From: an uncultured archaeon
Lineage (GTDB): Archaea; Asgardarchaeota; Jordiarchaeia; Jordiarchaeales; Jordiarchaeaceae
Direction: 5' to 3'
Assembly: GCA_964510585.1 (NCBI GenBank)
Contig: CAZECW010000035.1
Coordinates: 1-12,339, forward strand
Length of the DNA: 12,339 bases
A model generated the notes under the pieces. It was not told the origin of the DNA, made no database searches, and saw only the letters and a program-made list of their open reading frames with translations. Positions 2,754 through 10,786 of the stretch are shown here, piece by piece (position 1 is the first letter of the stretch; each line of letters begins with the position of its first letter). A program made the position numbers and the translations under genes.

Positions 2754-4193
2754 TTAGTGTCCTCTTATTTTGCTCGGGTCTGCTTTATCTATTTTTTTGA
2801 TTGTTCCAATGAATGCTGCTGCCACTGGATTCAGCTGGTCTACCGCAACTTTATCCAGGGTGTCGCAGGGGTCAAAAAGGTACTCTGGTCCCGAGATACA
2901 GCTGTAGATGGGATATCCTGCTCTGAAGAAGGCCATGGCATCTGTGGGCACTCCCAGAGGAGTGGTTCCGGGCAATATTATGAGGCGTTCCAGATTGTAT
3001 TTCTCTGCTTCCACAGCCAAATTATAGACCAGGCTGCTGGTGGCTTCTTCATTTCCTCCCTTGGTGAAAACTCCTCGGGGCTCGGGCAAGCCGGTGTCCA
3101 CCCATTCCTCCTGTTCTACGTCGAAGTCTTGGGCAATATGCTCTATGCACACATCCATCACCAGTCTCCGCATTATGTCTGGATTACTCTCTATGAAGGT
3201 GCTGTCCCCTCTTGCTGGTCCCCCGAAGTGTGTTCCCGTGGATAGAAAAACTAGGGTTTTCTCTCTCTCTGATAAGGGTGTTTTGGTAAAGTGTTCGGCT
3301 AAGGCTAGAACTTCGGCTACTCCTGAGGCGTCCTCAACCGCACTGTTCCAGGGACCATCATGGTGGGAATGTACCACTATTGTATCTTTGGTTTGTCCTG
3401 GCAGCACCGCGACGATGTTGTGGGTGATAGCTGGCTCCACATCTCCAGTCAATATTAAGTTAGCCTTAAGGCTTCCTTTCGCATTCTGTAATTTTTCAAC
3501 TAGCTCTGCTCCGTCTCTTCTTCCAACCCATAGTCCTGGTATCCAACCCGGTATCTGTCCCGGTAATCCTAGGCGTGTGAGGAACCAGTCTGGCATTTCT
3601 TGGTTTAGAGGTCCGAAATAGGGGATGTATATTCGGTTTTCATTGGTGGGATAGTCGGCCAAAATACCTACTATTCCCGCTGCTTTTTGTTTGCATGAGT
3701 GCCAGTAGGCTCCCCACCAGTTGGGATAAATCCAGGCTGTGGGGTGCGCAAAATTTTTGAGTGTTTCCTTTGGGTCCCAGACAAAGAAAGCCATTTTCTC
3801 CAGAAGACTTGCCTGGAGCATTGGAAAGCGTACATTCATCAAAACAATTTTTCCCTCAACATCCTTACCTTCGAAATCCTTAGCAGTGCCGTCGCCTAAG
3901 TAAACGATTTCGCCCTCTACGCCATCCTCATCTGTGAAGCCGGTGTTAGGTGTGTGAAAGCAGGGTATTTCGCTTTCGCCCACGGTGAGCTTCCAGTCCC
4001 GGGCTTCCCATTTTAGTATGCGGTAGGGCTGCTTTTCCACATCGATTAATCCAAAATCTTCAAACTTCTTCGCAATGTATTCTTCAGCCTTGGAGTCCGC
4101 CAAAGTGCCAGGTCTCCGATAGCCGAAGGAAGCTATTTTCTCTATCCAGCTCGAAATTTCCTCATTGGAAACCACGTCGGATGCAAAATTCAA
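2754..4193 (-). CDS. M28-fold (Zn aminopeptidase-like) protein with PA-domain insert and non-canonical metal/catalytic residues, ~479 aa
   Basis: It has an N-terminal R.PGT.AD..AEEYI segment, a PA insert (GEIVYLGDGTAKDFEGKDVEGKIVL) and HNIVAVLPG...VVHSHHD, then AVEDASG, LVFLSTGTH, CIEH, PTDAMAF and YLFDPCDTLDKV. The ORF track starts at GTG 4202, but that GTG lies inside the SD-like GAGGTGA, so the in-frame TTG at 4193 is preferred. Confidence 0.85.
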   Translation of the reverse strand: MNFASDVVSNEEISSWIEKIASFGYRRPGTLADSKAEEYIAKKFEDFGLIDVEKQPYRILKWEARDWKLTVGESEIPCFHTPNTGFTDEDGVEGEIVYLGDGTAKDFEGKDVEGKIVLMNVRFPMLQASLLEKMAFFVWDPKETLKNFAHPTAWIYPNWWGAYWHSCKQKAAGIVGILADYPTNENRIYIPYFGPLNQEMPDWFLTRLGLPGQIPGWIPGLWVGRRDGAELVEKLQNAKGSLKANLILTGDVEPAITHNIVAVLPGQTKDTIVVHSHHDGPWNSAVEDASGVAEVLALAEHFTKTPLSEREKTLVFLSTGTHFGGPARGDSTFIESNPDIMRRLVMDVCIEHIAQDFDVEQEEWVDTGLPEPRGVFTKGGNEEATSSLVYNLAVEAEKYNLERLIILPGTTPLGVPTDAMAFFRAGYPIYSCISGPEYLFDPCDTLDKVAVDQLNPVAAAFIGTIKKIDKADPSKIRGH

Positions 4194-4242: not shown

Positions 4243-4258
4243 AAAATAAGCTTTTGCG
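4243..4258 (-). promoter_or_regulatory. BRE/TATA promoter of the M28-like gene
   Basis: The minus strand reads CGCAAAAGCTTATTTT about 50 nt upstream of the start, leaving room for a short SD-containing leader. Confidence 0.5.
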
Positions 4259-4262
4259 AAAC

Positions 4263-4285
4263 AAACCAAACCAAACCAAACCAAA
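4263..4285. repeat. Pentanucleotide microsatellite (AAACC)4-AAA
   Basis: Read directly: aaaccaaaccaaaccaaaccaaa, preceded by a degenerate aaac. Confidence 0.85.
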
Positions 4286-4390
4286 TTTAGCACCAAAAAG
4301 TACAAATTCTGCCCAAAAAAAGGGGAGAAAAGAATAATGGGGAATTGTTGGAGGTATTTGAATCAACTTTTTTGTTTGCTTCTCTGCACC

Positions 4391-6221: not shown

Positions 6222-7631
6222 TTAGAAGTTTAGTGTTTTTATTTCCAGTATTCTGCAGAATTCCGTGATTTCTTTTGTTATGTCTCCTACAACTAGTTGG
6301 GCGTGTTGGCTTGGGTAAACCTCTAAGATTTGCGCTGGGTCGCACTCTAAGCCTATGCTTATCACGGGCCACTTCATCATGTTTTCAAAGGCTTCACTTC
6401 TCACTATTCTTCCCCTGATTATTATCATAAGGTACTCCCCTTGGGTTCTTCCAAGCCTTGCCCATGTTATTGGTTCTCCCTCTTCTGCAATGTAGTGGAT
6501 TGCCGCTCCGCCCGCTTTTCCTTGGACTTGGGGTACAAGTTCTACTCCCTTGAGGTTTTCTTTAGGGTTTTGTGAACGTTTAGTGTACCAGGTGCTTGCT
6601 CCACCGCAGTTTGCGATGGTGAAAAGTCTTTTTTCCCGATCCCAGAAGAGTATGTCTCCGAAATAGACTGGTTTTCCGCCGCTTAGGAGTTTTAGTATCT
6701 GCATGGTGAGGGCTCCGTTTAGGTCTGCTTCGCAGGCGCAAGGGGTGGTTTCCTTTTTTCCCTCCGCATCGTAGGGATCATTTAGGAATGTGGGGGTGAG
6801 GCACTGGTTAACGTATTTGTCGCTGAGCTCGGGCTGACACTTAATCCCCACAAAATCTAATTCCAAGCTGGCCACTAATCGTTTCGCGGCCACGTAGCTC
6901 CTAACCTGTTTCTCCAAGGTTTCATCAGTGACCACTCCCCCATCCTTCAGGACTTTGCAGTTCTCATTAATCCATTCTAGGTACTGCTTCACAACCTGTG
7001 GGGGAACTTTTTCCGCTTCTCTTATGATTTCTACTTGGTCTATGTGTTCCACATCTACACCAAAGATTCTCTGAATCTGGCTAGGGTCAGCGGTCGCAGT
7101 GTATATTCCCATGGATCTTCCCCCAATTAAGCCTAGGGTTGAACCTCTTAAGCGGTTAATTGCAGTGGCGGCTCTCACAAATGCCATGGTTTCTGAGGCT
7201 ACTTGGGGGCTGTTTATGGCTCCACTTATATAGAGGGTTCTGTTTTTTATTCCCACCTCATCCAGTGCTCCCTTCACTGCTGTGGGTCCGCTAAGAGCCA
7301 TAGGAGCCAAAACCATTACTGGAAGAGAGTGGCTTTGGGCTTTTTTTGCCGCAGCCACACCTATGGAAGGGTAGGTCCAACTGGGAATGCACATGATGAG
7401 GGATTCTCCTTCCCTATGTACTAGTTCAGACACTGCTATTAGTGCTTCCTTCTTGGAGTTTACTCTTCCGCAGTCAATTGCCTCCGCTCCCTTCTCCTCC
7501 AACAGTTTTATGAGTTCTGTATGCAAGAATTCTTCCAGCTGTTTCATGTCCACTCCGCTTTTGAGCATTCCCTGGTAGAACTCCTCCCGGGGATCAACAA
7601 TACTTAAAACACCAACACTGGGCCTATGCAT
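6222..7631 (-). CDS. fucI: L-fucose/D-arabinose isomerase (FucI) family ketol-isomerase, ~469 aa
   Basis: Motifs correspond to those recalled from E. coli FucI: IVDPRE (~IDGRR), SWTYPS (~WCYGS), GRSMGI (~GVSMGI), GIKCQ (~GFQGQ) and FLNDPYDAEG (~ILNSSFDWNG). Metal-ligand equivalents are E in ACEAD, D in YFGD and H in PSQH (E337/D361/H528 in FucI). ATG 7631 with upstream GGGAGAG is preferred over 7703. The family call is solid; the substrate is not proven. Confidence 0.85.
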   Translation of the reverse strand: MHRPSVGVLSIVDPREEFYQGMLKSGVDMKQLEEFLHTELIKLLEEKGAEAIDCGRVNSKKEALIAVSELVHREGESLIMCIPSWTYPSIGVAAAKKAQSHSLPVMVLAPMALSGPTAVKGALDEVGIKNRTLYISGAINSPQVASETMAFVRAATAINRLRGSTLGLIGGRSMGIYTATADPSQIQRIFGVDVEHIDQVEIIREAEKVPPQVVKQYLEWINENCKVLKDGGVVTDETLEKQVRSYVAAKRLVASLELDFVGIKCQPELSDKYVNQCLTPTFLNDPYDAEGKKETTPCACEADLNGALTMQILKLLSGGKPVYFGDILFWDREKRLFTIANCGGASTWYTKRSQNPKENLKGVELVPQVQGKAGGAAIHYIAEEGEPITWARLGRTQGEYLMIIIRGRIVRSEAFENMMKWPVISIGLECDPAQILEVYPSQHAQLVVGDITKEITEFCRILEIKTLNF

Positions 7632-7690
7632 AAAGTGAACTCTCCCAAACTTTAATTCGACTTTTGAGGTAGTCTTAGCATTTTTAATGG

Positions 7691-7793
7691 GGTTTGGATG
7701 CATTTAAGTTTGCCGAAAGTTGCCCCATCTCCCGCAGAGTAGGCTATCATTCCAGGTTTTGATGCATTTTAAGTTTGCCGAAGTGCCATCCCA
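7691..7793. repeat. Imperfect tandem direct repeat (two copies, 64-nt period) in the divergent isomerase/aldolase promoter region
   Basis: Copy 1 (7691) is GGTTTGGATGCATTT-AAGTTTGCCGAAAGTTGCCCCATCTCC. Copy 2 (7755) is GGTTTTGATGCATTTTAAGTTTGCCGAA-GT-GCC--ATC-CC. Confidence 0.85.
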
Positions 7794-7920
7794 CTGAAGA
7801 TGCTTGGTTTTTTAACTCTTGTAGAGTCGTTTAGGGGGCGAAAATATTATTTGTGTGGAGCCTTCTTTAACCTATAAATGTTTGAATTTCGGAAAAATTT
7901 TTGGATAGGTGAATTTGGTT

Positions 7921-8727
7921 ATGGTTATTGGTAAAAAGTTTCGGTTGGGTAGGATTTTCCAGAAGGATGGAAAGTCTCTTGTTGTGGCTTTGGATCACTC
8001 CTTCACCTTTGGACCTATGCAGGGCATAGAGAAGCCCGGTGAAACAATTGAGAAGGTGATTGAGGGCGGCGCTGACGCAATAATGACCAGCTACGGTATA
8101 ATAAAGGAGTTCCACGACCTCATGGTTGGAAGGGTGGGCACAATACTACGCTTGGACAGCGGTGGAAGCATCTATAATCTTTTGGACTTTAATAAGGTGA
8201 CTGATTGGCACCTGATTTATAGTGTGGAGGAGGCGGTGAGGCTGGGTGTGGACGGCGTTATTGTTATGGGTTTCTTTGGTGCTCCCTGCGAAGCTGCCAC
8301 CTTGGAGATTCTGGGGTATGTGGCTGAGGAGTGCCACAAGTGGGGTATGCCCCTACTTGCGGAGACCCTTCCCATGGTTGGCAATATTGTTAAGGATGCC
8401 TACGATGTGGGACATGTATCCTTTGCTGCCAGAGTCGGGCAGGAGTATGGAGCTGACTTCATAAAAACTAATTACACTGGGAGTCCAGAGTCATTCAGAA
8501 AGGTTATAGAAAACTGTTCCATACCAGTTCTCATCGCTGGAGGAGCCAAAATGGAAACCCCAAAAGACGTTTTGGGAGTGGTGAGGGGAGCAATTGACGC
8601 CGGAGGGAAGGGCGTAGTATTCGGTAGAAACATTTGGCAGTACAAAAACCCTACAGCTATGACTAGAGCCATAGCAAAAATAATACACCAAAACGCAAGT
8701 GTGGAAGAAGCATTAAAGGAACTATGA
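7921..8727 (+). CDS. DhnA/FbaB-type class I (Schiff-base) aldolase, ~268 aa
   Basis: It has N-terminal GKKFRLGRIF, VALDH, GADAIM, DFIKTNYTG (Schiff-base Lys, codon 8464-8466), VLIAGG and VFGRNIWQ. ATG 7921 sits 8 nt after AGGTGA, so it is preferred to GTG 7909. Confidence 0.9.
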   Translation: MVIGKKFRLGRIFQKDGKSLVVALDHSFTFGPMQGIEKPGETIEKVIEGGADAIMTSYGIIKEFHDLMVGRVGTILRLDSGGSIYNLLDFNKVTDWHLIYSVEEAVRLGVDGVIVMGFFGAPCEAATLEILGYVAEECHKWGMPLLAETLPMVGNIVKDAYDVGHVSFAARVGQEYGADFIKTNYTGSPESFRKVIENCSIPVLIAGGAKMETPKDVLGVVRGAIDAGGKGVVFGRNIWQYKNPTAMTRAIAKIIHQNASVEEALKEL

Positions 8728-8785
8728 AAAGATAAAAAAAGGGTAAGAGTGAATATTACCGCATAAATTTTTGAATGTGATTGAA

Positions 8786-9736
8786 ATGTCTGTAAAGGTT
8801 TTGGATGTTGTAGGCATTGGATTGACCTGTGTAGACTTGGTAATGAGGGTTCCCAAGTTTCCTGAGGTTGACGAGGTGGTCATATCTTTTGAGTTTGAAC
8901 AGCATTTTGGTGGGGTGGCTGCCAACGCCATAGTAACATTGGCTCGTCTGGGAGCAAAGGTGGGATTTATAGGAAAAATAGGCATGGATCCCTTCGGATA
9001 CAATATGGTGAAGGCGTTTGAAAAGGATGGTGTAGACACCAGCAAAATAATAAGGGACAGACGTTTCGGCTCCGCCCTAAGCTTTATTCAGGTAGGCCCT
9101 AATGGGGAGAGAAAGATTTCCCACTATCCGGGAGCCGCCCCCTTCCTCACACCCGAAGATGTGGAGCAAACAAGTGACTACATTGCCTCCTCAAAGATGA
9201 TTCACATGGACGGGATTAATCCCCAATCTGCGATACGCTCAGCGGAAATAGCCAAAAAGAGGGGAGCCCAGGTTTCCTTTGACTTGAGCACCTCCCTAAG
9301 CGCGGTGGAGATTTTTGGCCTCACAAAAAAAGATGTGGAGAACTTTATTGGACTCATAGATGTTTTCATTCCCTGCAAAATTGCCGCCCAGGAATTAACT
9401 GGGGAGGAAGAACCCGAGAAGGCGGTAAGGAAACTTTTGGATATGGGTCCAAGCGTTGTGGGCATCACTCTTGGAAACAGGGGATGTATAGTGGCAACAA
9501 AGGAGGAAATTGTCAGGAAGCCCGCCTACAAGGTTGAAGTAAAGGATACCACGGGTGCGGGAGACGCTTTTCACGGAGCATTCCTCTACGGTCTACTCAA
9601 AGGGTGGACTCTGGAAAAAACAGCAGAATTTGCAAATGCTGTGGCGGCCATAAAATGCCAACACTTCGGGGCTAGAAGCGGATTACCCACAGAAAGCGAA
9701 GTGGAAAAATTCCTAAAAACTGCTCAAACCATATAG
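8786..9736 (+). CDS. PfkB/ribokinase-family carbohydrate kinase, ~316 aa
   Basis: It has VVGIG..CVD, GGVAAN.IVTLARLG (PfkB signature 1), GERKI, ITLGNRG and DTTGAGDAFHGAF (signature 2, catalytic Asp present). ATG 8786 is preferred to TTG 8771. Confidence 0.92.
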   Translation: MSVKVLDVVGIGLTCVDLVMRVPKFPEVDEVVISFEFEQHFGGVAANAIVTLARLGAKVGFIGKIGMDPFGYNMVKAFEKDGVDTSKIIRDRRFGSALSFIQVGPNGERKISHYPGAAPFLTPEDVEQTSDYIASSKMIHMDGINPQSAIRSAEIAKKRGAQVSFDLSTSLSAVEIFGLTKKDVENFIGLIDVFIPCKIAAQELTGEEEPEKAVRKLLDMGPSVVGITLGNRGCIVATKEEIVRKPAYKVEVKDTTGAGDAFHGAFLYGLLKGWTLEKTAEFANAVAAIKCQHFGARSGLPTESEVEKFLKTAQTI

Positions 9737-9753: not shown

Positions 9754-9822
9754 AACCCTAACATATTATCTTTATTATGCGATATGGATATTTTGAAGGT
9801 TAAGTTTTTTATTGGTGGTTTT

Positions 9823-10326
9823 TTGGGAACGAATTTTGAGAGAGCTAGGGTATGTATTCTTATGGCCATTAGTGATTTAGAGAGAGTTATTAGAAATTTT
9901 GAATCAGAGGATTTCGCCGCAGCTGTTTTTAGAGCTCAAACTTCTGCGGAGCGTTTATCTAAAGGTCTCATTTTTCTATTGGGTCTCCAATTCAAAAAAA
10001 CTCACAAACCCACGGCAATCATCAAAAAGGTTTTAGGTGAGAGACAACTTACAGAAACTCAGAAAAAACTGGTCTCGCAGATTATTTCAAAAGCAAAAAT
10101 TCTTGAGGAACAGGGAACAATACCTCGATATGGTGTCGAGACCCCTACTACGATTCTGCGTCCCGAAGAATTATATGACAAGAACAAAACTCTGGAGCTA
10201 ATTCGAGTGGCCAGTGAACTTGTTGATGTTTATATTCGTCTGTTGGAGCTCCAGAACCTATTTCCAGACGTGCAGCCCGAGTTGAGGAGGGTAAAAGTTG
10301 AGCTATCCAAACTATTCCCGAATTAA
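9823..10326 (+). CDS. HEPN domain protein (archaeal COG2250-like), ~167 aa
   Basis: It has F..A.F.AQ..AE+..K (FAAAVFRAQTSAERLSKG), KKTH, RY (IPRYG) and Y.K.....LI..A, and it is adjacent to an MNT gene. In-frame TTG 9823 follows GGTGG; ATG 9784 is the alternative start. Confidence 0.8.
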   Translation: MGTNFERARVCILMAISDLERVIRNFESEDFAAAVFRAQTSAERLSKGLIFLLGLQFKKTHKPTAIIKKVLGERQLTETQKKLVSQIISKAKILEEQGTIPRYGVETPTTILRPEELYDKNKTLELIRVASELVDVYIRLLELQNLFPDVQPELRRVKVELSKLFPN

Positions 10327-10333
10327 GCATCCC

Positions 10334-10786
10334 ATGTATAAAAAGTGGTTGGAGGATTATGTTTCAAACCTTCTAGAAAAGCTTGGCGAAAGAGTGGTAG
10401 CCATACTTGTGTTCGGCTCCGTTGCTGCTGGTAAGGCTCGATTCGACGAAGAACATCAAAGCGACATAGACATATTAGCCGTAATAAAGGAACTGCCAAC
10501 CGACTATTTCGAAAGAATAATGTACAAAACAGAAATACAGGGTATGACCGGCTTAGGGGTGGAGTCGATATGGTACACGCCTGAAGAAATGGTAAAAGTT
10601 GCTGAGAGAAAACCTCCATACATTCTAGACGCCCTAATTCACGGAATCATAATCTACGACACCGAAAAATTCCTGGAAAACGTATCAAACAAGCTCAAAG
10701 AGGACCTCAAAAGAAAAGGAGTCATTGAAACAGAAACAGCGTGGAAATGGCCAACCCGAAAAGCCATAGAAGAAATAGAATTCTAA
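10334..10786 (+). CDS. Minimal nucleotidyltransferase (MNT, Pol-beta fold), ~150 aa
   Basis: It has ILVFGSVAAG...SDIDILAV (GS + DxD), then ESIWYTPEE and DALIHGIIIYD. The ATG is 7 nt after the HEPN stop. Confidence 0.88.
   Translation: MYKKWLEDYVSNLLEKLGERVVAILVFGSVAAGKARFDEEHQSDIDILAVIKELPTDYFERIMYKTEIQGMTGLGVESIWYTPEEMVKVAERKPPYILDALIHGIIIYDTEKFLENVSNKLKEDLKRKGVIETETAWKWPTRKAIEEIEF

Follow-up and report, generated by a model that had tools for sequence, protein, structure and literature searches.

A widespread branch of the M28 peptidase fold with a rewired metal site, probably a one-metal amide hydrolase

The window analysed here is the whole 12.3-kb contig C35 of an Asgard archaeal genome (3.78 Mb, 96% complete); its best protein matches are in Candidatus Freyarchaeota / Jordarchaeia. 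On the minus strand, between two amidase genes, lies the gene for an M28-like protein with an inserted protease-associated (PA) domain (Table 1). In textbooks, peptidases of clan MH are recognised by their co-catalytic pair of zinc ions. The window protein misses two defining features of the co-catalytic M28 peptidases, the ligand set and the glutamate base. It belongs to a widespread branch of the M28 fold which, judged from its sequences, is probably a one-metal amide hydrolase. Hundreds of annotations as 'M28 family peptidase' almost certainly do not describe ordinary aminopeptidases. To our knowledge, the departures from the two-zinc site are glutaminyl cyclase, which has the Zn1 half only, and inactive receptors. 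A large conserved clade that keeps the Zn2 half together with a histidine base would be a third solution, and the finding gains interest if the single-metal Zn2-half site proves true.

The M28 fold, as claimed in a preliminary description of this DNA, was supported by several searches. Pfam PF04389 (M28) matched with 26.3 bits (cut-off 21.3), in a match limited to the first 63 of 193 profile positions, and phmmer found the PA-domain aminopeptidase 2ek8 of Aneurinibacillus sp. AM-1 in the PDB at E 8.8e-13. A family profile reached 2ek8 at 1.7e-37, the Shewanella M28 protein 3iib at 1e-28 and the B. subtilis aminopeptidase BSAP/YwaD (6hc6) at 1e-19, aligning residues ~42-154 and 197-366 to 2ek8. 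An AlphaFold2 model built from 119 homologues had a pLDDT of 94.9 and a pTM of 0.94. When this model was compared with the PDB by Foldseek, 2ek8 again ranked first (E 1.1e-29), followed by BSAP, 3iib, PaAP, GCPII/III and the transferrin receptor (TfR); the best fold matches among Swiss-Prot models were YwaD, carboxypeptidase Q (CPQ) and fungal Lap2. Full-length structural alignments to 2ek8, 6hc6, 3iib and CPQ models gave TM scores of 0.62-0.71. A PA domain set into the catalytic domain is common to 2ek8, BSAP, 3iib, CPQ, GCPII and TfR, and the same insertion in the window protein assigns it to the PA-domain M28 subgroup (BSAP / 2ek8 / CPQ-like). We conclude that the protein is an M28/PA homologue by descent and a member of M28 (clan MH) as a homologous superfamily. 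Note that NCBIfam gave no match for it, and that ESM Atlas, AFDB clusters and AFDB Swiss-Prot returned generic M28, CPQ or aminopeptidase names only.

Residues are numbered from GTG 4202. The true start is probably TTG 4193 (codon 4), because a Shine-Dalgarno-like GAGAGGTGA precedes it and close homologues are 479 aa long. No signal-peptide-like N-terminus was found on the window protein, and an upstream extension is impossible.

Residue equivalences were taken from alignments to 2ek8, 3iib and 6hc6 and are given in the numbering of Aeromonas aminopeptidase (AAP; 1amp), which has no PA domain and, unlike the window protein, keeps both zinc subsites. The residues singled out in the preliminary description (H280, E290, T324, H325, E354, H355 and F443) were all found at their codons, within 2862-3371, and the three alignments reproduced its pairing of H280 with H97, E290 with D117, E354 with D179, H355 with M180 and F443 with H256. 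Its placement of T324-H325 opposite the catalytic Glu pair was one residue off: H325 lies opposite the first Glu, E151, and F326 opposite E152. Its count of five changes at six key positions held, with the make-up corrected to H kept, D to E, E to H, E to F, D to E and H to F. It was also right that the general-base Glu is absent, but rather than leaving no base the change puts a His (H325) in its place. The five canonical ligands (His, bridging Asp, Glu, Asp, His) align with H280, E290, F326, E354 and F443.

The three enzymes 2ek8, 6hc6 and 3iib, the best matches in both sequence and fold, have the same PA-interrupted alpha/beta catalytic domain. At 16-20% identity they share with the window protein SHHD, xDASG, the D of the SDH motif and DT(L)DK, whereas their canonical D / EE / D / H is replaced by E290 / H325-F326 / E354-H355 / F443. 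The paired motifs (window protein first) read SHHD/SHHD, AVEDASG/ANDDASG, lEHiA/LDMVG and YLFDpxDT/WYHTPNDT. D447 corresponds to the canonical Asp of the HTxxDT motif, and D444 is an acid typical of the clade. H281 was considered as a clade-specific new ligand and rejected, as 2ek8 also has SHHD (SHHDS).

Table 1. Features of the window, with active-site residues set against AAP
Feature	Position	Strand	Remarks
M28+PA-fold protein gene P0001	2754..4202	minus	intact open reading frame, 482 codons/482 aa from GTG 4202
PA domain (approximate)	3453..3920	minus	residues ~95-250; from shared architecture and secondary structure of the predicted structure
H280-H281-D282	3357..3365	minus	H280, Zn2 ligand by alignment (AAP H97); D282, H-bond partner (AAP D99)
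E290-D291	3330..3335	minus	E290 at the bridging Asp (AAP D117); D291 = D118
H325-F326	3225..3230	minus	H325 at the general base (AAP E151); F326 at the Zn1 ligand (AAP E152)
E354-H355	3138..3143	minus	E354 replaces Zn2 ligand Asp (AAP D179); H355 replaces pocket Met (M180)
F443-D444-P-C-D447	2862..2876	minus	F443 replaces Zn1 ligand His (AAP H256)
Amidase A, P0002	1292..2707	minus	471 aa, amidase-signature; Pfam PF01425, E 7e-123
Amidase B, P0003	4391..5806	minus	471 aa, amidase-signature; PF01425
L-fucose-isomerase-like gene	6222-7703	minus	
DeoC/LacD aldolase + PfkB kinase	after the isomerase gene, within 6222-9736	plus	
HEPN domain gene + minimal nucleotidyltransferase gene	9784-10326 + 10298-10786	plus	29-nt overlap

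The register at H325 was given by every sequence and profile alignment to solved M28 enzymes: all were ungapped over F319-G328 and set H325 on the first Glu. Three independent observations point to the same register. An M28+PA paralogue on contig C146 of the same genome reads H/D/H-E/D/H, with five canonical ligands and His at the base. Within the family tree, basal members likewise have 'HE' and keep H443, and in one subclade a Glu stands at 325 although position 326 is still Q or hydrophobic and position 443 is N. As the third observation, the family profile scored 32.5 bits against PDB 2anp and 27.9 bits against wild-type AAP (1amp) over the same residues. We take 2anp to be the E151H mutant of AAP. 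In this variant the His stands exactly at the position of H325. The title of Bzymek et al. 2005, which speaks of a 'functional E151H aminopeptidase' (ref. 47 in PMC3426542), suggests that His can serve at the E151 position of AAP, a precedent by analogy for H325.

As aligned, the two ligands private to Zn1 are lost (F326 and F443) and the general base is changed from Glu to His (H325), while the ligands of Zn2 would survive as H280, E290 and E354, with two Asp-to-Glu changes. The 'HE' paralogue (L012:262-1902, minus strand, 546 aa) is 32% identical to the window protein and has the same architecture and the His at the base. Unlike the window protein, it has the five canonical ligands and ends in a PKD-like domain that resembles the PKD domains of collagenases. 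It looks like an evolutionary intermediate between canonical M28 enzymes and the clade of the window protein, and such a natural 'HE' form would make the evolutionary path visible.

Conservation was assessed in two sets of homologues, 119 at 30-98% identity and 248 after 50%-identity representatives had been added. Among the 119, E354 and D447 were invariant, and H280, H281, D282, D291, H325 and H355 were conserved in at least 90%. The larger set gave the same picture at position 280 (H in 244 of 248, 98%), 282 (D in 246, 99%), 291 (D in 230), 354 (E in 242, 98%) and 447 (D in 244). At the general-base position 325, H was found in 236 sequences (95%) and E in 6. Position 326 was occupied by F (141), M (65), Y (13), W (10) and also L, never by E or D, and position 443 by F (116), Y (67), L (32), N (9) and H (3). 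E at position 290 (191 sequences) gave way to Q in 36, N in 14 and D in 5, and H at position 355 (230 sequences, 93%) to M in 9. N290, E291 and M355 occur together in a variant clade, which shows, at the level of the alignment, that positions 290, 291 and 355 are coupled. The proposal that the substitutions were selected and define a clade is borne out in both sets, at levels of conservation far from chance. Among the invariant and near-invariant columns of the 119 homologues there was no other conserved EE pair or His that would restore the canonical site.

Could the enzyme still be dinuclear? The first site would then be rebuilt by H325, D444 and/or H355, with E290 bridging and H355 or a group of the substrate acting as base. 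H325, H355 and D444 are clade-typical polar residues; H325 (-1) and D444 (+1) are each directly adjacent to a lost Zn1 ligand, and H355 comes next after the retained Zn2 ligand E354. In addition, Q290 co-occurs with H444 in one clade, and the N290-E291-M355 variant shows that these three positions co-vary. We consider a rebuilt dinuclear site unlikely. The co-variation of Q290 and H444 is confined to essentially one clade and amounts to essentially one evolutionary event, and one clade that has M instead of H355 still possesses H280, H325 and E354. D444, tried as the universal replacement for the H256 ligand, was rejected family-wide, with D in only 165 of the 248 sequences. An obligatory carboxylate bridge between two metals is disfavoured because 20% of the members have Q or N at position 290, and a single metal is favoured because the residues common to all clades (H280, H325, E354) can hold just one. 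This sequence evidence is explained most economically by a mononuclear site formed by H280/E290/H325/E354, to which H355 may or may not belong.

The family is large and widely spread. In an exhaustive phmmer search, 190 clusters represented at 50% identity scored below E 1e-30, and 757 scored below 1e-10. A pattern-seeded scan of one genome per species, started from a 12-sequence alignment, found relatives in at least 266 species genomes of archaea and bacteria. The archaeal holders included Jordarchaeia/Freyarchaeota, Promethearchaeota, Hod- and Hermodarchaeota, Thermoproteota, Methanomethylicota and one euryarchaeote; the bacterial holders included Binatia, 'delta proteobacteria'/Myxococcota, Dehalococcoidia, Acidimicrobiia, Nonomuraea, Actinocrispum, Planctomycetota, Solimonas and Pseudomonas mediterranea. 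The distribution in the phylum of the window was patchy: the gene turned up in 12 of the 31 genomes that were searched, and 9 of these 12 were among the 10 other genomes of the window's order. All members were named in their sources as 'hypothetical' or 'M28 family peptidase' only. Literature searches for M28 pseudoenzymes and for mononuclear M28 enzymes with a PA domain turned up nothing relevant, and no characterised member, such as an ordinary aminopeptidase within the clade, was found. One metagenome-assembled genome of Deltaproteobacteria carries two tandem, overlapping copies of the family gene (L020:5953-9098).

Loss of both Zn1 ligands and of the canonical base, together with a position between two amidases, might indicate a non-catalytic binding or scaffold pseudoenzyme that possibly serves the amidases. 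The models for such a role are TfR, nicastrin and nicalin, whose M28(+PA) folds carry a non-canonical site; of these, TfR and nicalin were among the profile and fold matches. However, inactive members of clan MH lose their site residues without replacement, and TfR, nicastrin and nicalin have no conserved replacement ligands, whereas the replacements in the window clade are 93-98% conserved. Indeed, the site positions are among the most conserved in the protein (93-99%, polar), and all could act as ligands or as acid/base groups. Purifying selection on the gene is strong (ratio of non-synonymous to synonymous substitution rates 0.06-0.10 against four relatives, L014-L017), and most family members have no adjacent amidase. 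A non-catalytic role is therefore, in our judgement, very improbable.

Glutaminyl cyclase (QC; animal and bacterial type II) provides a precedent for an M28 fold with one zinc after loss of one subsite. QC keeps the Zn1 ligands Asp/Glu/His and the Glu base, and has no PA domain. Its zinc is bound by the equivalents of D117, E152 and H256, with a Glu151-type shuttle, and the window protein has F326, F443 and H325 at the E152, H256 and E151 positions. The window family keeps the Zn2 half and QC the Zn1 half, and the sequence similarity between them is marginal. The clade would thus be the converse of QC and not its analogue, because QC kept the ligands lost here.

This comparison bears on the possibility that, as in QC, the fold has been turned to a reaction other than hydrolysis, such as cyclisation or acyl/aminoacyl transfer. 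Losing one metal subsite and the Glu base can be likened to the route taken by QC, as known for that family, and the profile weakly touches the QC entries 6qro and 7cje (E ~1e-4, N-terminal part only). Against this, the two sites are opposite, the D/E/H ligands of Zn1 and the Glu base being kept in QC and lost here. Moreover, the neighbouring genes encode hydrolases, not biosynthetic enzymes, and about half of the family members have signal-peptide-like N-termini, as scavenging hydrolases do. We regard a non-hydrolytic reaction as improbable.

The gene neighbourhood points to amide-bond hydrolysis over a non-hydrolytic reaction. In the window, 46 nt separate the M28-like gene from the start of amidase A on its downstream side, and amidase B lies 188 nt upstream. 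The two amidase proteins are 76% identical and form a direct duplication at a 3.1-kb offset around the M28-like gene; they are two of three PF01425 genes in the genome, the third being GatA-like and located elsewhere. Amidase A scored below every NCBIfam equivalog cut-off. The order amidase / M28-like / amidase recurs in the close relatives L014-L016, and the arrangement was also noted at L008. The three related genomes L014-L016 all retain both copies, which marks the duplication as old and each copy as maintained. At the locus of a 69%-identical homologue there is a single, downstream amidase. Among bacteria, an amidase overlaps the start of the M28-like gene at three loci (L032, L039, L043), and five further Binatia loci have amidases 2-4 kb upstream. 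Of the 67 genes immediately next to a family member on the same strand, 10 encode C-N hydrolases: four are ceramidase-like, three Amidase, two CN_hydrolase and one penicillin amidase. When a conserved operon was sought across lineages, no single conserved partner emerged and only amide/ester hydrolases were enriched. The recurrent pairing with amidases is a starting point for a substrate search.

Other neighbours varied with lineage. L032 also has amine-oxidase-like flavoproteins, a thiolase, an acyl-CoA synthetase and an acyl-CoA dehydrogenase, and the tandem family pair at L020 is flanked by an M24 peptidase and a carboxylesterase. The Pseudomonas member lies with a PTE-family gene and TetR, and that of one Freyarchaeota genome with a polysaccharide synthase and GT2.

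Taking the observed fold, residue equivalences, conservation, purifying selection and recurrent amide-hydrolase neighbourhood together, we infer the number of metals, the division between ligand and acid/base roles, the hydrolytic activity and the kind of substrate. The reading to which we give an even chance is that of an active metallo-amidohydrolase of M28+PA fold with a reorganised site, whose only metal would sit in the Zn2-type subsite that remains. The enzyme would be cytoplasmic and catalytically active. Its Zn1 subsite would have been dismantled, the private ligands now being F326 and F443, and its Zn2 subsite retained with longer carboxylates (H280, E290, E354). H280 and E354, with E290 and/or H325, would hold the one metal, which would activate a water for attack on an amide bond. 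H325, a His general base that would have been inherited from an 'HE' dinuclear ancestor, or H355, the second new His, which would line the pocket, may shuttle the proton. In the organism of the window it would probably work in the same catabolic route as the two flanking amidases, on an amide- or peptide-like small molecule.

Several points weigh against this single-metal hydrolase. In AAP, Zn1, the site lost here, is the high-affinity and catalytically sufficient subsite. We know of no precedent for a Zn2-only site, and Zn2 alone may be insufficient for hydrolysis. That H280, E290, H325, E354 and H355 converge on one point is suggested by analogy with the solved enzymes, and the family is known from sequence and predicted structure alone. 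As regards the neighbourhood, gene context varies across the family and is not conserved, the archaeal and bacterial neighbouring amidases are only ~33% identical to each other, and related Binatia genomes account for many of the loci that support the link. Note that a complex prediction for the M28-like protein with amidase A (median 0.00, 0.50 in one of three runs) was made without controls and is not used as evidence.

More tentatively, and with some doubt, we propose that the clade is a natural class of the M28 fold that would hold a single metal in the 'Zn2' half-site on residues of a His/His/Glu type (H280, H325, E354, with E290 and H355 assisting), as a mirror image of glutaminyl cyclase. 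In many bacteria as well as in Asgard archaea, such enzymes might work together with amidase-signature enzymes on a non-peptide amide, which they would hydrolyse or transform in some other way. On this clade it could be tested whether catalysis is possible with the Zn2 subsite alone.

Several minor observations concern the surroundings of the family genes. Within the 188 nt that separate amidase B from the M28-like gene there are a T-run and a TATA-like AT-rich box, and between these lies a short (TTTGG)n-like repeat, tttggtttggtttggtttggttt (4255-4290, minus-strand reading). In ten loci of Promethearchaeota and Hermodarchaeota (L040, L045, L047, L053, L061, L070, L072, L082, L087, L091), a gene for a 329-aa protein without Pfam match is always found ~85 nt upstream of the family member on the same strand, and a PH0730-like/DUF4443 gene is also near.

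The remainder of the window (Table 1) begins with a divergent sugar-catabolism cluster at 6222-9736, with the isomerase gene on one strand and the aldolase and kinase genes on the other, which looks like an isomerase-kinase-aldolase route for some sugar. The L-fucose-isomerase-like protein has a weak, sub-threshold likeness to the sulfoquinovose isomerase SftI (E 1e-25). Beyond this cluster, the overlapping HEPN and nucleotidyltransferase genes resemble a toxin-antitoxin pair of the HEPN/MNT type.

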